A stretch of 64,000 nt of DNA, taken from a virus (lineage: Duplodnaviria > Caudoviricetes). A program made the position numbers and the translations under genes. Under the pieces are notes generated by a model, which saw nothing but the letters and a program-made list of their open reading frames with translations, had not been told where the DNA came from and did no database searches. The stretch covers positions 64,001 through 128,000 of the IMG/VR virus record IMGVR_UViG_2788499951_000002; one strand, written 5' to 3'. Positions within the stretch are counted from its first letter, which is position 1; the number at the start of each line of letters is the position of its first letter. Positions 10,698-20,353 of this stretch are shown here, in pieces.

Positions 10698-11305
10698 TGG
10701 AACTACCAGAGAAGTACAAGAAGTCTCGCCAGAAGATGACGTTTGTGACATATGACCTGATCCCTGATGAGGCACGGGAGATCCTCCATGGTCTCGTGAA
10801 TCGCATCGAGGAAAAGATTTACGAGACTCTCGATCATATCTCTTGGACGACAGAGCACGATCTGAGATCAATCTGGCCGGTTGATGCACCGTTCTTCGTA
10901 CTGAAATCCATGGCGAAACATGAGATTGAACAGACAGTGATGATCTCGGTGTTGGGTGTTCACATCGATAGTGTGTCCCGCTCCCCGAACCGTTCCGATC
11001 CGCTTCCGGTCATCCCGTGGGCATGGCTGGGATATGACGATATTTCCGAGATCCGCCGGATGTGTGTCACAGTTGACAGGGCAATCTCAGAGATGTACGC
11101 TTCGACTGGTGGATGGGCAGACAAGGATGAGAATGACAACACTGTCGCGTATAAGCTGGGGTTCTCCCCCATCAAGGGAGAAGGCGACATATCTCCCACC
11201 CGTGCAGCGTCAGTGAGACATCAGCGCCCGAACAACGTGACATTCCCCGTCGTATTCCGATTCAACTCATTCATGTCAGACCTTTCTGCAATGTGCTCAC
11301 TATAA
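10697..11305 (+). CDS. hypothetical, C-terminal motif family (AMCSL*)
   Basis: MELPEKY..TYD, IPW, LGF.P shared with the previous ORF. Confidence 0.75.
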   Translation: MELPEKYKKSRQKMTFVTYDLIPDEAREILHGLVNRIEEKIYETLDHISWTTEHDLRSIWPVDAPFFVLKSMAKHEIEQTVMISVLGVHIDSVSRSPNRSDPLPVIPWAWLGYDDISEIRRMCVTVDRAISEMYASTGGWADKDENDNTVAYKLGFSPIKGEGDISPTRAASVRHQRPNNVTFPVVFRFNSFMSDLSAMCSL

Positions 11306-11316
11306 AGGAGATCTAA

Positions 11317-11625
11317 ATGTCAGACCTTATCAATGCCCGAAAGATTCGCCCCCTTCATGCCGAGTTCCTGTGTGTTCGGACTCGAAAGCCGAAGGAATCA
11401 AACTCTTTGATCTACACTCCGGATGAAGACATGGACGACGCAGCGGGGACCACCTTCACTGTTCTTCGTGTCGGTCCAGAGTGCAGAGAACTGAAAGAAG
11501 GCGACACCGTCGTTATCAAGTTCCAGAGCATGACCCCGCCATTCTTGGCATCAGTCGATGGTGAGGAGAAGATGGTAGCTATCGGGCCGGAGAGTTCAGT
11601 TCTGGCCGTCCTGACAGGAGAATGA
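11317..11625 (+). CDS. groES: GroES/gp31-like co-chaperonin
   Basis: IRPLH..., VLRVGP..LKEGDTV, ESSVLAVL. Confidence 0.8.
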   Translation: MSDLINARKIRPLHAEFLCVRTRKPKESNSLIYTPDEDMDDAAGTTFTVLRVGPECRELKEGDTVVIKFQSMTPPFLASVDGEEKMVAIGPESSVLAVLTGE

Positions 11626-11963
11626 ACATGAAAGACGACTCACATCTGTTCCCTGCTAGTAAAGAAGAATCACCGATGTACCACACCCTGTTCGGGATAG
11701 TGACTTCCACACCGGACCCGTCCATGCAGTCCAAGCCGTTCGTTATGGCCATCAAGGAAGGATCATTCGACACCGTCACAGGAGAGGAGGGTGAAGTTGT
11801 CGAGTACTATGACATGATGGAACCTGACACAGACAAGCTGAAGGGGTGCCTGATCACCATCTATCAGGCGCGATACGGGAACATGTGTGGGACTTTTTCT
11901 GTCGAACCCCATGGACTTGTCCGTGTTGCTGATGATATGATCGATGCATACAACGAACTGTGA
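11622..11963 (+). CDS. hypothetical protein (ends AYNEL*)
   Basis: 113 aa ORF, coupled to groES. Confidence 0.65.
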   Translation: MNMKDDSHLFPASKEESPMYHTLFGIVTSTPDPSMQSKPFVMAIKEGSFDTVTGEEGEVVEYYDMMEPDTDKLKGCLITIYQARYGNMCGTFSVEPHGLVRVADDMIDAYNEL

Positions 11964-11971
11964 GGTGTAAC

Positions 11972-12541
11972 ATGAAATATCAGAACAAACGTATCATCAC
12001 TGACGTCGATGGTGTCCTCCTCGCATACGAGAAGACATTCAGTGAACACATGGGGTGGGACTTTGATGAGAAGTCTGACTCTTATCGGTCATTCGAGTGT
12101 ATGAACAATGATCCGGCATTCTGTGTCGGATCTGCCATCCGTGACTTCAACTCGTCTCCGGAATTCTCCCGTATCCCTCCTCTGGATGGGGCGATTGAGA
12201 TGATCGAGGCTGCGTTATCCTCGGGGTACAAGATCGACGTCATTACCAGTTGCGGTGGGACAGAAGAGATCCATGCGGCTCGGATCAAGAACCTGAAGGA
12301 CGTGTTCGGTGACGTCTTCACCTCGATCACCTGTCTCCCCCTTGGGGCGAGTAAGCGGTCTTCACTCGAGCGGTACAAGAACCAAGGACACATCTGGCTG
12401 GATGACTCGATCAGCCACTATCGAGATGGGCTGACTGCTGGTCTGGGTTCTCGTCTGGTGACTACCCCGTTCAATCGCGGGCTGAAAGACAAGGTTCGTC
12501 GAATCGAGTCATGCGCAGATCTGATCCCGCATCTCGAGTGA
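11972..12541 (+). CDS. HAD-family 5'(3')-deoxyribonucleotidase-like phosphatase
   Basis: ITDVDGVL, ITS, K, WLDD, PFN. Confidence 0.8.
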   Translation: MKYQNKRIITDVDGVLLAYEKTFSEHMGWDFDEKSDSYRSFECMNNDPAFCVGSAIRDFNSSPEFSRIPPLDGAIEMIEAALSSGYKIDVITSCGGTEEIHAARIKNLKDVFGDVFTSITCLPLGASKRSSLERYKNQGHIWLDDSISHYRDGLTAGLGSRLVTTPFNRGLKDKVRRIESCADLIPHLE

Positions 12542-12667
12542 ATTGGTTGCATAACACGCAACACTGATATTCCAAAACGGTATCAAAAAATTTTGGACTT
12601 CTTGAATCCTTGACATAAATAGAAGTCCAAAACGGGGGAGGCCGAATCATTCCTCCCCACCATATAC

Positions 12668-12743
12668 GGCCCTGAGACCAACTGGGATTGGTACCTGTCT
12701 GTCGAACAGGACGCTGCGAGATCGAAACTCGTCTGGGCCGCCA
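12668..12743 (+). tRNA. tRNA-Asp(GTC)
   Basis: Anticodon arm CCTGT-CTGTCGA-ACAGG; encoded CCA; atypical T-loop ATCGAAA. Confidence 0.8.
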
Positions 12744-12745
12744 AT

Positions 12746-12832
12746 GGAGAATTGGCTGAGTGGCCGAAAGCGCTGGTCTTGAAAACCAGAGGACGTGAAA
12801 GCGTCCCGTGGGTTCGAATCCCACATTCTCCT
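12746..12832 (+). tRNA. tRNA-Ser(TGA)
   Basis: CTGGT-CTTGAAA-ACCAG, long variable arm, GGTTCGAATCC; no encoded CCA. Confidence 0.9.
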
Positions 12833-12836
12833 CAGG

Positions 12837-12926
12837 GGAAGATTGCCAGAGCGGTCGAATGGGATCGGTTGCTAACCGATTAGAGGTTAGTCCCTCTCAA
12901 GAGTTCGAATCTCTTATCTTCCCCCA
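12837..12926 (+). tRNA. tRNA-Ser(GCT)
   Basis: ATCGG-TTGCTAA-CCGAT, long variable arm, GTTCGAATC, CCA. Confidence 0.9.
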
Positions 12927-12933
12927 ACTTCAT

Positions 12934-13008
12934 TCCGAGGTAGCTCAATGGTAGAGCAGACGGCTGTTACCCGTCAGGTTGTAGGATCGTGCCCTACCCT
13001 CGGAGCCA
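12934..13008 (+). tRNA. tRNA-Asn(GTT)
   Basis: GACGG-CTGTTAC-CCGTC; TAGCTCAATGGTAGAGC D-arm; CCA. Confidence 0.88.
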
Positions 13009-13094
13009 AACAAAAAGGTGTTGACTTCTGGAACCGGATAGTCGATACTGCAGTTGTTCCACATCAAACATTCTCCCGAACGCAGAGGTTCAAC

Positions 13095-13616
13095 ATGAAC
13101 TATCTTCAGAATCACATCTACTGCCATGATTCGAACTGGGGTGGTGGTTATGACTGCCGACATGTTGTCACAATCAGCTCTTACGAAGATCATGACGTTG
13201 AAGACTGGGAGAATCTCTTCCTGACTGAAACGGTTGATGTGTTCCGAGCTGAAGAGTACAACCGGATGCGTGAGTTCGATCAGGATACTCCTGAGGAGCG
13301 GTTGAAGCGATACTACACCACTCCCGTCCGTCGCCTCAACCCCGAGGTGCTTGAGTGGCTGGAGGAGAATGTGAAAGACCGTCCAGCTCGTCAGGCTGAA
13401 CACTCCGGTGAAAGTCCGAAAGGATGGTGCATTCCCTCTCTTGAAACCAGAGCGATGTGCACAACCGGTATGAGCTTCTACTTCCATACTCGTGGCAGTG
13501 CGATGAACTTCATCCGCCGCTTCAGTAAGTGGAAGAAGCCGGTACACTACTGCCAGTACTTCACAGATGTGCGCAAGACGTTGGATCTGGAGACAGGCAA
13601 GTACGTGAAAGAATGA
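13095..13616 (+). CDS. hypothetical protein inserted in the tRNA cluster
   Basis: GAGG RBS, MNYLQNHIY...; own promoter TTGACT-17-GATACT at ~13021. Confidence 0.75.
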   Translation: MNYLQNHIYCHDSNWGGGYDCRHVVTISSYEDHDVEDWENLFLTETVDVFRAEEYNRMREFDQDTPEERLKRYYTTPVRRLNPEVLEWLEENVKDRPARQAEHSGESPKGWCIPSLETRAMCTTGMSFYFHTRGSAMNFIRRFSKWKKPVHYCQYFTDVRKTLDLETGKYVKE

Positions 13617-13623
13617 TAGAAAT

Positions 13624-13698
13624 GCCTCGTTAGTTCAATGGTAGAATACTGCGCTTCCAACGCAGTGATAGGGATTCGAATTCTCCTACGAGGCTCCA
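13624..13698 (+). tRNA. tRNA-Gly(TCC)
   Basis: CTGCG-CTTCCAA-CGCAG; TTCGAAT; CCA. Confidence 0.85.
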
Positions 13699-13703
13699 AA
13701 CTT

Positions 13704-13779
13704 GGAACTTTAGCTCAGACGGTAGAGCGGTGGTTTGAAAATCCACAGGTCGCTGATTCGATTTCAGCAGGTTCCACCA
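13704..13779 (+). tRNA. tRNA-Phe(GAA)
   Basis: Anticodon loop TTGAAAA; TTCGATT T-loop; CCA. Confidence 0.85.
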
Positions 13780-13782
13780 AAT

Positions 13783-13859
13783 AGCGGGGTAGCTCAGCGG
13801 TCAGAGCAGATGGCTCATAACCATCAGGTCGAGTGTTCGAATCACTCCCTCCGCTACCA
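13783..13859 (+). tRNA. tRNA-Met/Ile2(CAT)
   Basis: GATGG-CTCATAA-CCATC; GTTCGAATC; CCA. Confidence 0.88.
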
Positions 13860-13861
13860 TA

Positions 13862-14345
13862 CCGATGTCCACATGGGGCAATAAGAGCCGAAGTGTCGAC
13901 ATTGAAGTACGTGCATTCATAGATGGGTTATGCACGCTAAACAAACAACCCATCACGACGCCGCCCTAGAGCTTCCTCTCCCATACATTGTTGGTGATGA
14001 AACTAGGTAAGAAGATGTAGCCGTTTAGGCACTTGCCACCACCGATGTGCCAATTGCTGTGTGCATGTTGGTCTTTGTCGCTCGCTGAATCAAGTAGGTT
14101 GGTGAGGTGGCTTCTAAAGAGGCCGGAGGACGCTCCGGAAGTCGTGGACTGTCAGATCTGACGCCCTCCCCCGCACACTTACGGTGCGGCCATTGTTGGG
14201 TATTGACCGGCATATTCTGCGCAGTTGGAAGGGTATATCCGTCCCCAGATGTGAATCCGTTTGCATCAGAATCGGTATACTGGTCCACCCGTGGCCGAAT
14301 CAGTACACACGGGGAGTGACATGGTCATGAACATGTTGCGCAAAT
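13862..14345 (+). ncRNA. putative large structured ncRNA of unknown family
   Basis: No credible ORF; H-type pseudoknot, several hairpins and long-range helices; follows tRNAs and precedes a terminator. Confidence 0.6.
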
Positions 14346-14347
14346 CA

Positions 14348-14372
14348 GCCCTCGCATATGAGGGCTTTTTTG
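14348..14372 (+). terminator. intrinsic terminator
   Basis: AGCCCTC-GCATAT-GAGGGCT-TTTTT. Confidence 0.85.
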
Positions 14373-14382
14373 TGTCTGAATG

Positions 14383-14411
14383 TTGACCCCGTCCTTGGAT
14401 TGTCGTATAGT
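14383..14411 (+). promoter_or_regulatory. sigma70-like promoter
   Basis: TTGACC-17-TATAGT. Confidence 0.7.
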
Positions 14412-14434
14412 ACCCAGTAACAAAGGAGGCCACC

Positions 14435-14734
14435 ATGAGTGACATGATTACCGAAACCGTTTCATCCTGTGCATATCGGGAGTTCCAGAACCGCTATGAC
14501 GTCTTCGTCGAGAAGGGAGAGATCCAGCCACTGTTTCATGATCTCCCTGTTGACAAATACTCCCAGTCACTGTATGCTGGTGACCAGATCGAGGACATCC
14601 TTGATGCCATCTATCTTCAAGGTGTGACTGATCTTGGCAAACTGATGGCTGTATCTCGGGGCTTCATCAACCCCATGCTCATCATCAATGAACTGAACCA
14701 CTTCACCTCGTGGTCAAACGGAGAAACCCAATGA
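14435..14734 (+). CDS. hypothetical protein
   Basis: 99 aa, AAGGAGG RBS. Confidence 0.7.
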   Translation: MSDMITETVSSCAYREFQNRYDVFVEKGEIQPLFHDLPVDKYSQSLYAGDQIEDILDAIYLQGVTDLGKLMAVSRGFINPMLIINELNHFTSWSNGETQ

Positions 14735-15312
14735 TCGATTCAACTGCCATGCACTCCATCGTCACCGAGATTCTCTCTGTCTCTCGAGCCATCAATCAGA
14801 ACCGCAACATCGAGGGTGTCAATCTTGCGCTGATGTCCGAGGTTGGTGAACTGGCTGAGGAGATCCGCATCAAAGAATACCCCTTCCACAAGAAGGCAGG
14901 GAAGGATGGCATCATCGGGGAGGCGGCTGATGTTGTCATCGCGACCACTGACATGATCTACATCTCCGGACAGTCGGAACTCGTCGACAATGAGGCATAC
15001 TTCTTCTCGTATGACGCCGATGACGAGAAGTATTCAGGTTACGTTCTGGGGTGGACAGGAGAGGCGATATTCGGTGATGACGACATCACCACTGCGCAGA
15101 CTCTGGCAGACATGGCGACCGGCTCAGGGGCCATGTTCGCCATCCCCTTTGCACCTGATGAGAACAAGAAACTGGCACTCGTCGGTGACGCAGCCGCTGC
15201 GATCCTGAATGCTGTCATGATGCTCTCTCGCAAGGAAGGATTCGATTTTGATGAATTCGCTGAGATCATCACCGACAAGCTGGAAAAATGGAAGACCAAT
15301 TACTCAAACTGA
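14731..15312 (+). CDS. MazG-like NTP pyrophosphohydrolase
   Basis: LMSEVGELAEE...GEAADV...KLEKW. Confidence 0.75.
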   Translation: MIDSTAMHSIVTEILSVSRAINQNRNIEGVNLALMSEVGELAEEIRIKEYPFHKKAGKDGIIGEAADVVIATTDMIYISGQSELVDNEAYFFSYDADDEKYSGYVLGWTGEAIFGDDDITTAQTLADMATGSGAMFAIPFAPDENKKLALVGDAAAAILNAVMMLSRKEGFDFDEFAEIITDKLEKWKTNYSN

Positions 15313-15315
15313 GTG

Positions 15316-15344
15316 TTGACAGCAAGATCGACCTGATGTAACAT
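15316..15344 (+). promoter_or_regulatory. sigma70-like promoter
   Basis: TTGACA-17-TAACAT. Confidence 0.6.
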
Positions 15345-15395
15345 TCATCATGTTGAAGCAAGTACCAAACCAGACCAAACGAAAAGGAACACATC

Positions 15396-15812
15396 ATGTC
15401 CAAGACCAAACAAGGCCAGTCTCAGTCCGCACAGTATGCCACCTACAAGAACTCTGGTCGTTATGCGAAGAATCGCATTGCGAAGCTGGAGCGTCACCTC
15501 AAGAAGCATCCTGAGGATGGGGCGGCTGCCAAGGCTCTGGCGAATGCCAAGGGTTCCTCCCCGCGTCGCAAGACTCCGAACAACAAGGTCTGGAGTTCCA
15601 CCGCACGCCAGAAGGCCCAGCTGTACAAGATGGCTGGTTTGAACGGCAACATCGGTCTCGGTGGTAAGATGGAGGCAGACCACAAGGACAGTCTGATCGG
15701 CTATGGTCTCGAGATCGCCACCCATCGCGACACTTCCTACGGGAAGGAACAGAAAGCAGAGAAGGCGAAGAAGGCCAAGGCTGCAGCGAAAGGCTCCAAG
15801 AAGACCAAGTGA
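15396..15812 (+). CDS. basic hypothetical protein (possible nucleic-acid binding)
   Basis: K/A-rich 138 aa; YATYK..RYAKN..KLERHLKKHP. Confidence 0.75.
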   Translation: MSKTKQGQSQSAQYATYKNSGRYAKNRIAKLERHLKKHPEDGAAAKALANAKGSSPRRKTPNNKVWSSTARQKAQLYKMAGLNGNIGLGGKMEADHKDSLIGYGLEIATHRDTSYGKEQKAEKAKKAKAAAKGSKKTK

Positions 15813-15825
15813 GTCTATGACCTCG

Positions 15826-15850
15826 AAAGCCCCTCCCCGTGAGGGGCTTT
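15826..15850 (+). terminator. intrinsic terminator
   Basis: AAAGCCCCTC-CCCGT-GAGGGGCTTT. Confidence 0.7.
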
Positions 15851-15916
15851 CCTCGTTTCAGGGTAGACAAACCGAACTTAGTGTTGTATCATTCCCACAT
15901 CATCAAAGGAGACCCC

Positions 15917-16849
15917 ATGAAAAAGCTAAAGTCACTGCTCGTTGAGAAGTATCGTCCCACCACCATGGAAGAATATGTCTTTCCCGATGAGGAGACACAG
16001 CAACTGGCTCAGGGCTGGGTCGATAGCGGACAGATCCCCAACCTGATGCTCTCCGGCTCTGCAGGCGTCGGCAAGACGACATTGGTCCGTGTTCTCATCA
16101 ATGAACTTGGCATCCAGCCTTCCGATGTGAAGCAATTCAACGCGTCCGAGAAGGGTATCGACTATGTCCGTGATGTGATCCAACCGTGGACAATGAAGAC
16201 CTCATTCTCTGGGTTCAAGGTCGTGGTGATGGAAGAGGCAGATGCCCTGTCACCTCAGGCCCAGAAGGCACTCCGCGCGATCACCGAGGAGAACACAGAT
16301 TCGGTCCGTTGGGTGATCACCTGTAACTATCCGAAGAACGTCATTCCACCATTGCACTCGCGTTTCCAGCATATCCACATCGACAGTATGAACGAGCCAG
16401 ATGTGATCGATATGGTAGCGGGTATCATGGAGAAGGAAGGACTTGACGTGGAGCAGAATGACCACTTCTTCACACACATCGACGCATACAAGCCGGACAT
16501 CCGCAAGATCCTCAATTCAATCGATCAACACGCTCATGAAGGGTTTGTTGCCCCTCTCCGTGGTGTTAGTGAGTCATCCGACATCGACGAGTGGGAAACC
16601 CTCTGGTCCAGTGAGGGTGAACTGGATCTCGACAAGGCGATGGCCATTGCTGATTATGCCGACGGGAACAACTTCGACAATCTGTATCGCGTGATGTATG
16701 AGAACCATCACAAGTTCAGTGATGTTGGATCTGCGATGGTTCACCTGAGCACCTATCTGGATCGTGCTCAGACATCAGCAAACCAGCCCCTGCATCTCAA
16801 GGCGTTCCTCTATCACGTGTTCGTCGTTGAAGGGGGTGATGATGAGTGA
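15917..16849 (+). CDS. clamp loader large subunit (gp44/RFC-like)
   Basis: VEKYRP, GSAGVGKTT, NAS, EEAD, TCNY, PLHSRF. Confidence 0.92.
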   Translation: MKKLKSLLVEKYRPTTMEEYVFPDEETQQLAQGWVDSGQIPNLMLSGSAGVGKTTLVRVLINELGIQPSDVKQFNASEKGIDYVRDVIQPWTMKTSFSGFKVVVMEEADALSPQAQKALRAITEENTDSVRWVITCNYPKNVIPPLHSRFQHIHIDSMNEPDVIDMVAGIMEKEGLDVEQNDHFFTHIDAYKPDIRKILNSIDQHAHEGFVAPLRGVSESSDIDEWETLWSSEGELDLDKAMAIADYADGNNFDNLYRVMYENHHKFSDVGSAMVHLSTYLDRAQTSANQPLHLKAFLYHVFVVEGGDDE

Positions 16850-17261
16850 TCTTCATCGATTCTTTGATGCGATGAATGCAGGAGATTACGGGTATGTGGA
16901 TCGTATGGGGGACGATGAGGTCAAGAAGGTGTCCCCCTTCGTGATGCTGATGTGGATGCAGGGAGCCAAGACATGCACAGCCTACCACACCATCATGACG
17001 GACATGTTCTGCAACGGGGTAGTGTTCAGCCTCAACAAGCACCCCAGACTGCTCCTGAAGCTCTTTGTGGCGGCGAACTCGGACATGGGGGACACGCGGT
17101 ATGGGTTCGTCAAGCCACCCAAGAAGGAAGCCGAGAAGCACCTGAAGTTGATCGCTCATCACTATCAGGTCTCATTGAGAGAGGCGAAGGATTACGATAT
17201 GATCCTGACTGATGAAGACCGCAAGTACCTAGAATCCATGTACGGGGATATCGACATATGA
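16842..17261 (+). CDS. probable clamp loader small subunit (gp62-like)
   Basis: Follows gp44; SPFVMLMWM, HP.L, YQVSLREAKDY. Confidence 0.6.
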   Translation: MSDLHRFFDAMNAGDYGYVDRMGDDEVKKVSPFVMLMWMQGAKTCTAYHTIMTDMFCNGVVFSLNKHPRLLLKLFVAANSDMGDTRYGFVKPPKKEAEKHLKLIAHHYQVSLREAKDYDMILTDEDRKYLESMYGDIDI

Positions 17262-17947
17262 AGAATCTGAACGAGTTCAAGGAAATCAGTGAGATCTTCG
17301 AGGGTAAGGAACTCATCCATCACAGCGACACCGATTTCGAGTGCCCAGTGTGTGGCAAGCACTACAAGACTGAGAAGGGAGCCATCAAGCACCTAAGTTC
17401 TCGGTCTTGTGCGAAGAAACAGGATATCTTTGGTGGGTCCATGTATGAGAGCAACGCATTCATCATGTACACCAACATCGTCCATGACATGAAGCCGAAC
17501 GCCCGAGTCACGATCAAGACCTTCAGAAAGTCACCGATGTACGGACTTGTCATCGACTTCGTCCTCTCGACATCTCTGTTCGAGATCAAGGATCGCGGGC
17601 TATACTTCTCATACCTGCGGGACATTCGTGATCTGCATCCAAACAGCGCATTGAAGGCTGGCACCGAGGAAACAAACGCACGGGAGTTCCGGACGTTCCT
17701 GCAGGTCTACCCGAAGTATGTTGACAGTGCCAAGTTCTTCGGCCAGTATGGTGATGACCTGATCGAAGACGATGAGTTCTTGGTACGGTCTATCGAGAAG
17801 TCAGACATCACCCTGCGCTGGCTCATGGACTGCAGGAAGCACAACTTCGAGAAGATGCTGGATGAACTCCCGATTGGCCTGTCGATGCGAATTGACGCGG
17901 TCGTAACAGCAATGTCAGAGATGGAGAAAGCACATGCGAACCTCTGA
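17258..17947 (+). CDS. hypothetical protein with C2H2/C2HC zinc finger
   Basis: FECPVCGKHYKTEKGAIKHLSSRSC. Confidence 0.7.
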   Translation: MKNLNEFKEISEIFEGKELIHHSDTDFECPVCGKHYKTEKGAIKHLSSRSCAKKQDIFGGSMYESNAFIMYTNIVHDMKPNARVTIKTFRKSPMYGLVIDFVLSTSLFEIKDRGLYFSYLRDIRDLHPNSALKAGTEETNAREFRTFLQVYPKYVDSAKFFGQYGDDLIEDDEFLVRSIEKSDITLRWLMDCRKHNFEKMLDELPIGLSMRIDAVVTAMSEMEKAHANL

Positions 17948-19160
17948 ATCCCGTCTGGTGACACATCGCCAGCATCCGACTCTCCCGATTGAGATTCGGT
18001 CATACAACAAGCGAGCCTTCTTTCGCAAGGCTTGGAACGAAGAGACCATCAACTCACGTGGTCACGTGGTCACGCTCGATGGGACTCCTGTGTCCCGCCC
18101 GTTCACCAAGTTCCTGAATATCGGTGAGACGGACGAGTTCTCTCGGGAGAATGTTGAGCGTATGATCGAACTCCATCGAGATGAAGTCCTCTTCAATCCA
18201 AAGTTGAATGGGCACTTCGCTCAGCTCTTCGAATACGAGGGGCAGTGGATCAATACGACCAAGGGATCGTTCGAGCACGACTTCATCGAGCCAGACCGAG
18301 CACTCATTGAGCGTGCTGGATTGACGGATGATGCACTCGCACGAATGAATCCAAACTGGACGTTCCTCTTCGAGATCCTCGGTAACCATGATCGCCACAT
18401 GTTGCACGATATCGATGTGGAGTCATATGCCCACGAGGGGGAATCTGAAACCGCTGTCATCATTGGGGTGTTTGATCGTCAGACATGGTCAGAAGTGCCT
18501 GAGCGTGAAGTCTTTGAGGTTTTGCGCAAGACAGCTGACGTCTTGGATCTCCCGATCCCGCCGATGGTGGAGGGATTCACATATGGTGAAGTTGCATCGG
18601 CTCTGTTGGATCTGAATGAGGATAGGGCCACACCCTCCCAGATTCTGGATGCCCTGTATGATTCAGTGAATTGTGAGGGCATGGTGATCCAGATCCCGTC
18701 ACTGTGTTGGAGGGTGAAGCTGAAGACTCACTGGTTCATCCGGAATCGTTACATGCGCCAGATGACCAACACTCGGGTAGCTCAGATCATCAAGAAGCAG
18801 CGTGAAGACGAGAAGATCTATGCTCGCATCCCCGAGGAATTGCATGATGAGATGGACGAGATCATGTATGGGGTGAAGAATCAACATCGTATCTTCCTCG
18901 AGGAATTTCACCACCTGTCGACCTGCCTGCATGATGAGGGGTTTGTCACCAAGGACGAAATGATCGATGAGTATCGCCGGACCAGTGATGTGGAATCATC
19001 AGACGTCTGGATCACCACCAGCCGTACAATCGACCTGATCATGTTCAAGGCATTCTTCACTGGACATGACGCACTGTTCGATGCTACAGTCGACATGTAC
19101 ATGGCGGCAACGCCGGAACATTCACTGGTTCGAAACCACATGAGAGAGGATTTGTTATGA
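17934..19160 (+). CDS. RNA ligase (Rnl1-like)
   Basis: SRG..SRPFTKFLN, KLNG (motif I), TKGSF, FE, EGMV, KLKT. Confidence 0.8.
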   Translation: MRTSESRLVTHRQHPTLPIEIRSYNKRAFFRKAWNEETINSRGHVVTLDGTPVSRPFTKFLNIGETDEFSRENVERMIELHRDEVLFNPKLNGHFAQLFEYEGQWINTTKGSFEHDFIEPDRALIERAGLTDDALARMNPNWTFLFEILGNHDRHMLHDIDVESYAHEGESETAVIIGVFDRQTWSEVPEREVFEVLRKTADVLDLPIPPMVEGFTYGEVASALLDLNEDRATPSQILDALYDSVNCEGMVIQIPSLCWRVKLKTHWFIRNRYMRQMTNTRVAQIIKKQREDEKIYARIPEELHDEMDEIMYGVKNQHRIFLEEFHHLSTCLHDEGFVTKDEMIDEYRRTSDVESSDVWITTSRTIDLIMFKAFFTGHDALFDATVDMYMAATPEHSLVRNHMREDLL

Positions 19161-20353
19161 TTATCATCCTTCGGGGAGTGTCTGGGGCGGGGAAGGATTC
19201 CACCATTGCCGCACTCCCCTCACTGAAGCATATGGTGATCTCGAGTGATGACTATCGGGAACGATGGTTTGGGACTCGAGATCTCCCACCCAATGCGACC
19301 TCAATGATCTGGGGCAAGATGAAGGCTGAACTCGAAGAACGATGTTTGCGGGGACAGAACACGATCATCAACGCGACCAACTGCAGCCTGAAGAGCATCA
19401 ATGGCTGGACCAAGATTGGTCTCAAGTATGGCCATGCATGTCATGTGATCAGTATCGATGTACCGCTTCACGTTCTCAACGAGCGACTGGAGGAGCGACG
19501 TGCCAATGGTGTCTTCGCTAAGGCTCCTTTCTCGTTCGTCGAGAATATGCATCGCAAGTTCATTGAGGCGAACACTGCGATCCAGAAGACCTTCGGTGAT
19601 CGCCATCATATGGTGAATGACTGCATCGATGCTGCATTGGTCATCTCCGACCTCATCGCGAACCATAACGTGATCACCGTGCAAAAGAAGTTCGAGGATA
19701 AAATCTTCGTCATCGGTGATATCCATGGTGAGGTTGAAAAGCTGGATGAGTTGCTATCTCGCTACCTTCCGTGGGATGCCATGTTCTACACGCTGGGCGA
19801 TGTGATCGACCGTGGTCCGTCTTCCGTTGGTGTTCTGAGGAGACTGTCATCCGAATTCCGGTGGCGTGGTGCGATTCGTGGTAACCATGAATCTGCATTC
19901 ATCTCTGAGCGGCTTCAGGGTACGCCCTGCCGGTCCAAGGCACGTCAGAACACTCACCTTGAGTTCGACGCATTGAAGCCAAAAGAGCAGGAAAAGCTGA
20001 CCATGTTGATGGCGACGTTCACTCCGTTCCTGCGTCTGGAAGGGGAGGATAAGCGGATCCTGTTGACTCATGCAGGGTCATCATTGACTCGCCAGTCCGA
20101 CCTGTTCCGTCTGTCAGCATTCCCTGTATCAGGGGATCACATGCTGCGTATTGATGACTGGGAGCCGGAAGGTGCCTCCGACTCAATCACGCATCAGGTC
20201 CATGGTCATTCGTCTTGGACATACACTGGTGACTTCTCCGGTCCGGTCGTGAATATCGACTCTGGGTGCGGGAAGACCGAAGAGGACGAGAGTGGGTCAC
20301 CTCGAACCCTGACGGCTTATAACCCCTTCACAGGTGAGACAATCACCGTATGA
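19157..20353 (+). CDS. polynucleotide kinase fused to calcineurin-like phosphoesterase
   Basis: GVSGAGKDS, ISSDDYR, NATN; GDIHG, GDVIDRG, GNHE, HAG, HGH, NIDSG. Confidence 0.88.
   Translation: MIIILRGVSGAGKDSTIAALPSLKHMVISSDDYRERWFGTRDLPPNATSMIWGKMKAELEERCLRGQNTIINATNCSLKSINGWTKIGLKYGHACHVISIDVPLHVLNERLEERRANGVFAKAPFSFVENMHRKFIEANTAIQKTFGDRHHMVNDCIDAALVISDLIANHNVITVQKKFEDKIFVIGDIHGEVEKLDELLSRYLPWDAMFYTLGDVIDRGPSSVGVLRRLSSEFRWRGAIRGNHESAFISERLQGTPCRSKARQNTHLEFDALKPKEQEKLTMLMATFTPFLRLEGEDKRILLTHAGSSLTRQSDLFRLSAFPVSGDHMLRIDDWEPEGASDSITHQVHGHSSWTYTGDFSGPVVNIDSGCGKTEEDESGSPRTLTAYNPFTGETITV

Follow-up and report, generated by a model that had tools for sequence, protein, structure and literature searches.

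An apparently non-coding stretch at the end of a phage tRNA operon, read as a candidate trailer RNA

The locus and its transcriptional setting

The locus is located in a viral record of 157,856 bp with direct terminal repeats, of which bases 64001-128000 were analyzed. This whole stretch of 64,000 nt is termed the window, and positions are those of the window unless stated otherwise. Near-identical copies are present in Tara Oceans and other marine assemblies, indicating that the source is an uncultured marine phage. The neighbourhood encodes a helicase, a clamp-loader ATPase, a MazG-like protein, a T4-type RNA ligase and a kinase/phosphatase, all of which are on the plus strand, and the clamp loader shares only ~37% identity with its best cultured matches. 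Seven tRNA genes and ORF173, again on the plus strand, all lie upstream of the stretch described here. Genes for tRNA-Asp, Ser, Ser and Asn were found by ARAGORN at 12668-13008. ORF173 follows at 13095..13616, and tRNA-Gly(TCC), tRNA-Phe(GAA) and tRNA-Met(CAT) were found by both ARAGORN and Rfam at 13624..13859, with tRNA-Met placed by ARAGORN at 13783-13859. These last three are kept in the Tara copies and absent from the close relative L002, which is described below.

Nowhere in the 157,856-bp genome is there a longer run free of ORFs ≥90 aa than at 13617-14434, which bears out the ORF-poor gap proposed in an initial sequence-only reading. The part located 3' of tRNA-Met (13860-14434, 575 nt) holds no credible gene. 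The same reading had placed the gap between tRNA-CAT and a strong terminator, and both flanks were recovered. The stretch begins 1 nt past tRNA-Met on the tRNA strand and is followed by the intrinsic terminator of the operon at 14347..14372 (8-bp stem with 5 GC pairs, run of six T, folding z -5.2), with no terminator between the two. This terminator is identical in L002 and is the only convincing one on the plus strand of the unit. From ~13000 to 14346, neither a plus-strand terminator nor an internal sigma-70-like promoter was observed. Ahead of ORF173, a consensus scan gave a candidate sigma-70-like promoter, TTGACT-17-GATACT (13021..13049, 9/12 match), which could drive ORF173, the tRNAs and the stretch beyond them. 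Downstream of the terminator, a promoter-like site precedes the ribosome-binding site of the next gene; this site, TTGACC-17-TATAGT (14383..14411, 10/12 match), is a promoter candidate for ORF99 (ATG at 14435) and represents the far edge of the unit.

Several further features of the cluster can be observed. Ahead of tRNA-Asp, the region 12590-12662 contains a hairpin with TTGACATAAATAG in its loop, after which a 7-bp G/C-rich minihelix (12635-41/12652-58) ends in ACCA and resembles an acceptor-stem mimic. The minihelix loop has the 10-mer GGCCGAATCA in common with 14293-14302 of the stretch beyond tRNA-Met, and L002 carries one substitution and a 1-nt insertion in the hairpin/minihelix region. 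The tRNA-Asn gene (12934-13008) displays a non-canonical T-loop, GGATCGTGCCC, while L002 has the canonical GGTTCGAATCC. Furthermore, at 17934-20353, 3.5 kb downstream of the tRNA cluster, a T4 Rnl1-type RNA ligase adjoins a kinase/metallophosphatase resembling polynucleotide kinase-phosphatase, the classic tRNA-repair pair.

ORF173 encodes a conserved phage protein within the tRNA cluster, with 44 metagenome homologues and a coding-like codon score of 0.27. One close cluster of these homologues has 98% identity, and the rest are at or below 53%. Neither Pfam nor PHROG has a match for the family, which is characterized by a conserved N-terminal NH.WC..SNW and by conserved Cys/His positions. In the loci concerned (window 13095-13616, L019 3001-3507, L020 1164-1664), at least three widely differing phages (158 kb, 302 kb and 109 kb) carry a family member within a tRNA array, the tRNAs starting 7-25 nt past its stop codon. 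This arrangement hints that the family has a tRNA-related function or is a mobile gene of tRNA clusters. In distant loci either the next ORF or tRNA genes come after the ORF173 homologue, at spacings from a 2-nt overlap to a 203-nt gap, and no counterpart of the stretch was found after the homologue in the distant relatives examined (metagenome, IMG/VR and Pseudoalteromonas phage XG4 loci). Searching with the stretch by blastn gave nothing beyond the lineage in 50,697 phage records, and nothing in the phage's own genome or in 28 loci with ORF173 homologues. Scanning the IMG/VR and JGI metagenome contigs for exact patterns gave nothing, and IMG/VR scans with three flanking proteins gave no close relative. 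Across all searches, homologues of the stretch were limited to the near-identical Tara/Logan copies and L002.

Coding potential and known RNA families

Codon-usage log-odds were trained on the long ORFs of the phage; coding windows average 0.34 on this scale, and the small flanking genes score 0.27-0.34. Within the stretch no ORF scores above 0.06, and all six frames carry 3-7 stops. The candidates for a small protein gene are a plus-strand ORF of 70 aa (14107-14319), a minus-strand ORF of 87 aa (14025-14288) and a 21-aa ORF starting at ATG 14321. A borderline codon score (0.04) was obtained for the 87-aa ORF, and GGGGAG stands 4 nt ahead of ATG 14321; on the other side, these scores are far under the coding mean, the 87-aa ORF has no Shine-Dalgarno sequence, and the 3 substitutions within it all fall at codon position 1. 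The 21-aa ORF was rejected, since its stop codon is located past the U-tract of the terminator, so that the terminated transcript would have no stop codon. A word-indexed search of 5.8 billion proteins yielded zero homologues of the 70-aa ORF, and the 87-aa ORF, searched in full with HMMER against 1.84 billion representatives, had a single marginal match (E 6.5e-4, a 1040-aa protein). Neither PHROG (none at E <0.05) nor Pfam gave a match to the stretch, tblastx against the loci of relatives found nothing, and on five independent contigs no gene was called in the gap. The codon scores, the PHROG comparison, the homologue searches with the 70-aa and 87-aa ORFs and tblastx were thus all negative for a pseudogene or protein-coding reading, and the stretch appears to be non-coding.

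With regard to known RNAs, Rfam 15 at the gathering score detected tRNAs only in the whole window. At E values up to 10, region 13600-14500 gave chance-level matches, with none to the tmRNA clan, GOLLD, ROOL, introns or RNase P. The only resemblance, to isrD, reached 16.5 bits against a gathering score of 37 and falls on the terminator hairpin. No confident known family was thus recovered by the Rfam check proposed in the sequence-only reading, and the novelty suggested there is not removed. Decayed tRNA genes in the stretch were also rejected: no sub-threshold tRNA match was found, and similarities to tRNA 3' halves are at chance level.

The loose likeness to tmRNA (SsrA) suggested in that reading did not hold up. 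A 5' GGGGC...TCGAC loosely resembling the tmRNA 5' end is indeed present, followed by a pseudoknot and adjoined by tRNA genes, but no model match or tag frame accompanies it. In tmRNA mode, ARAGORN made no call at its default threshold or at 90%. Lowering the threshold to 80% gave a permuted tmRNA on the minus strand (13934-14405), but this call is noise: 51 such calls occur in this genome, compared with ~60 per random genome. The acceptor stem of the call has G-C at position 3, no G3-U70, a G-A mismatch and no CCA. Six-frame translation revealed no plus-strand tag reading frame with an Ala-Ala-type or hydrophobic Ala-rich end. The stretch therefore differs from tmRNA in the tRNA-like domain, the G3-U70 pair, the CCA end, the tag frame and the model match, all of which it lacks.

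Structure and divergence from a close relative

L002, a 5.8-kb Logan contig, is collinear with the window at ~97-98% identity. It is without window 13610-13904, corresponding to tRNA-Gly, Phe and Met and a 42-nt hairpin that holds the 'GGGGC..TCGAC' motif, and retains only the four upstream tRNAs. This natural indel (window 13601-13913 compared with L002 2853-2861) comprises 304 nt between 9-nt direct repeats AAGTACGTG; alignment with L002 places the left copy at 13601..13609, the boundary of the indel (also in the repeat list), and the right copy at 13905..13913. The last two residues of ORF173 are swapped by the indel (KE vs HS). The L002 counterpart of 13905-13922 represents the last codons of ORF173 and its stop (..KYVHS*), and protein P0001 likewise ends in KYVHS. 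In L002 the ORF173 stop codon is located inside the pseudoknot described below, so the stretch would there be the 3' UTR of ORF173. Frameshifting or readthrough at this stop was considered and rejected, there being no slippery heptamer 5-9 nt upstream of the first pseudoknot stem; reading through the stop would extend the protein by just 5 codons. In this region chance alone yields many exact direct repeats of 8-10 nt, and in two distant phages the ORF173 homologue is followed by tRNA genes (10-25 nt); for these reasons we lean towards microhomology-mediated deletion in L002 rather than insertion of a cassette in the window lineage. Whichever direction applies, the tmRNA-like 5' part appears not to be obligatory in what is kept. 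The variant demonstrates that the pseudoknot and the core can persist in a genome devoid of the three tRNAs and the 5' hairpin.

The perfect H-type pseudoknot noticed in the sequence-only reading was found exactly where it had been placed, at 13910..13954. Its first stem (S1) has 7 bp (13910-16/13930-36) and its second (S2) 8 bp (13922-29/13947-54), all Watson-Crick, and the loops measure 5 nt (L1), 0 nt (L2) and 10 nt (L3, A-rich). The predicted fold is of the H type, with interleaved helices and groove-spanning loops. With similar loop limits, perfect interleaved helices of 7+7 bp occur 3 times on the plus strand and once on the minus strand of the whole genome, compared with ~1.6 per strand in Markov-simulated genomes. 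The chance expectation is ~0.005 per 480 nt, a value to be read with the fact that the helices were picked after the stretch had already been chosen. The other helices listed in that reading are present as well. When its three distinct versions were aligned, 61/62 of the pairs proposed for the stretch proved to be standard, and a single hairpin, GTATACTGGT, had been placed one base off, being actually located at 14275-14284.

Three nucleotides past tRNA-Met, the stable 42-nt hairpin (13863..13904, absent in L002) has a folding energy of -17.2 kcal/mol (z -3.98, 0/200 shuffles as stable). A C-rich, G-poor run (13937..13989) contains 22 C and 5 G in 53 nt, with negative GC skew. It overlaps the 3' part of the pseudoknot (L3 and the 3' arm of S2, 13937-13954) and continues beyond it. 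Its composition is like that of a Rho-utilisation site, which we only infer. The remaining core (13955..14345) displayed hairpins of ordinary strength, two proposed long-range helices (14035-46/14098-111 and 14166-71/14311-16) and no coding signal in codon scores and protein searches. A perfect 12-nt palindrome, GTCAGATCTGAC, is also observed at 14151-14162, the centre of which changes from A to C in L002.

The claim that the stretch is highly structured did not survive the comparison of folding energies. The z of -2.3 for region 13860-14375 can be traced to its two ends, where the 5' hairpin at 13863-13904 (z -4.0) and the terminator are located. For the core (13905-14345) z is -0.82, and 20/100 shuffles fold as well as it does; its minus strand has z -1.37. 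Six sub-elements ranged from z +0.1 to -1.9. When the core is compared with 788 equally long windows of the phage genome, most of which is coding, its GC-adjusted z comes to -0.74, and 24% of the windows fold better. The folding energy of the core is thus not clearly under the shuffled or genomic background. Only the pseudoknot, the hairpin 13863-13904 and the terminator stand out statistically, and the many listed hairpins are what any 440 nt at 53% GC offers.

Between the window and L002, region 13923-14345 displays 6 substitutions in 423 nt (1.4%; 98.6% identity), and 14157-14392 has zero differences. For nine flanking genes, mean pS is 0.097 and mean pN 0.0105, with pS of 0.16 and 0.11 in the two adjacent genes. 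Of the four-fold sites within the closest 300 nt of the two flanking genes, 5/89 differ (Fisher p 0.03 vs the stretch), and over these genes as a whole 10/110 do (Fisher p 0.0003). Divergence of the stretch is therefore 4- to 7-fold below that of flanking four-fold sites, which hints at constraint. It could also be that a recently exchanged patch, rather than selection, is responsible, since the window and L002 diverge in a mosaic fashion: pS of single genes spans 0.008-0.17, and at 14735-15812 four-fold differences number 0/158. Over 6 kb (window 10750-16850), such strongly mosaic divergence implies frequent recombination in this phage population.

The three distinct sequences differ at 8 variable sites, seven in L002 and one in the Tara copy L014. 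Three of the eight fall in helices proposed a priori in the sequence-only reading (S1, S2 and 14275-84/14299-308), and all three keep a standard pair through wobble; by our own estimate the chance probability of three of three is roughly 0.03-0.12. Two of these are the L002 substitutions in the pseudoknot, both C-to-U opposite G, with pairing kept. No compensatory double change was seen, on a sample of three distinct sequences with only 8 variable sites. For comparison, the four shared tRNAs differ from L002 at 10/329 sites and include one true compensatory change, in tRNA-Asp (12668-12743), where G2-C71 becomes A2-U71; a U-U mismatch at 6-67 is also repaired there.

A lineage-specific trailer and its alternatives

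We read the stretch as the lineage-specific, non-coding trailer of the ORF173/tRNA transcription unit, and suggest, with about even confidence, that it is an end-protected stable RNA similar in position to species I and II RNAs of phage T4. Since neither a terminator nor an internal sigma-70-like promoter is present in ~13000-14346, the trailer would be transcribed together with ORF173 and the tRNAs by read-through from one or more upstream promoters, ending at 14347-14372. In genomes with tRNA-Gly, Phe and Met, 3' processing of tRNA-Met would then free a separate RNA of ~510 nt, starting 3 nt before the stable hairpin. This hairpin (13863-13904) and the pseudoknot (13910-13954) would close the RNA at the 5' end, and the hairpin of the terminator would close it at the 3' end. 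Bacterial RNAs with ends closed in this manner are long-lived, and for this reason the trailer is read as probably end-protected and stable.

The trailer reading is consistent with the lack of a coding frame, of PHROG or Pfam matches and of homologues for the two longest ORFs (the marginal match aside). It also agrees with the end structures being the only significantly stable elements, with the rarity of the pseudoknot by chance, with retention of the core in L002 and with the three pair-preserving substitutions. Against it stand the mosaic divergence, by which an exchanged patch could explain the few differences; the lack of a compensatory change where tRNA-Asp has one at the same divergence; and the missing counterpart in the distant relatives examined. 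Moreover, a terminator alone has no need of ~430 nt of spacer.

Species I and II RNAs of T4 measure ~120-140 nt. The trailer, at ~440-510 nt, is larger, and the likeness is one of position. As with T4 species I/II (rnaC/rnaD), it is non-coding and lies distally in a phage tRNA cluster with an ORF inside it. The T4 operon is transcribed as one precursor carrying eight tRNAs and the species I/II RNAs, which terminates after species I (PMC2330249), and the trailer is placed likewise. The function of the T4 RNAs has been described as unknown. In L002, where the trailer would extend from the ORF173 stop to the terminator, it is comparable, by prediction, with long bacterial 3' UTRs, and with RNAs derived from such UTRs, whose end is set by an intrinsic terminator. 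GOLLD and ROOL are found near tRNA genes in phages and prophages and contain pseudoknots; ROOL averages 581 nt and occurs in at least three phyla (PMC5737381). The trailer resembles them in size class, in its location near tRNA genes and in having a pseudoknot, but it matches neither covariance model at E up to 10, is confined to a single phage lineage and gave no sign of a globally stabilised or conserved fold.

Among the alternatives, the one that survives best is that the stretch is a functionless spacer, left by the decay of a lost gene or by earlier rearrangements in a tRNA region prone to recombination, and retained solely for its terminator. Its lineage-specific distribution and ordinary folding energy are as such a spacer would have them, the 304-nt indel between 9-nt repeats demonstrates that the region is unstable, and patchy divergence means that few differences are no proof of selection. 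The spacer would nevertheless have to account for divergence 4- to 7-fold under that of flanking four-fold sites, for the lack of any frame with detectable protein similarity, and for a pseudoknot and 5' hairpin that are improbable by chance. Phage genomes, furthermore, rarely keep 0.4 kb of junk. We consider a functionless spacer possible, though on the whole unlikely.

A large, ornate RNA of a new class similar to GOLLD and ROOL, in which the whole ~480 nt is held in a selected fold of many helices and pseudoknots, was the proposal of the sequence-only reading. All of the listed helices exist, the pseudoknot is perfect and rare, the tRNA-adjoining position is that reported for GOLLD (PMC5737381), and divergence from L002 is low. 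The novelty part of the proposal stands, in that the stretch is non-coding and without an Rfam match, but its thermodynamics do not mark out a large structured RNA: the core folds no better than shuffles, and strand asymmetry is absent. In addition, no covariation was seen among the three distinct sequences, the 5' 45 nt are dispensable in L002, relatives are confined to one lineage and the GOLLD and ROOL models are silent. A globally selected fold is consequently not the reading taken here, and we regard it as distinctly unlikely.

An element that works as DNA, for example an origin of replication or a target of recombination or homing, would suit the position of the stretch at 77.9-78.4 kb of 157.9 kb, in the middle of a replication module with helicase, clamp-loader and polymerase genes, as well as the indel at its edge. 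Iterons and an AT-rich segment are absent, however, with GC at 0.48-0.57, and cumulative GC skew does not turn there. An origin was rejected, neither iterons nor a skew switch being present, and a DNA-level element of any of these kinds is very improbable. Still less credit is given to a small protein gene, for which the coding evidence is described above. The weakest reading, a tmRNA in the form of a one-piece, permuted or 'headless' tag template, is already refuted as far as sequence analysis goes, its GGGGC part being absent from L002 as well.

Returning to the trailer, it may be put forward as a candidate non-coding RNA from one phage lineage that rides the tRNA operon, a modest candidate rather than a new class of ornate RNA, for which the present finding gives no support. 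The low divergence and the pair-preserving substitutions suggest that it may be under some selection. A stronger version, doubtful at present, would describe an undescribed, lineage-specific stable RNA of ~0.5 kb in a marine myovirus-like phage, released by tRNA processing, containing hairpin and A-rich-loop pseudoknot modules, acting in trans (e.g. on host RNA decay or translation) and kept by purifying selection even where the adjacent tRNAs are gone. Phage tRNA clusters repeatedly hold unexplained non-coding RNAs, and each well-delimited case with a natural deletion variant, such as L002, helps to define the parts that are needed. If the RNA is expressed and stable, it would offer a compact system in which to ask what such trailers do.
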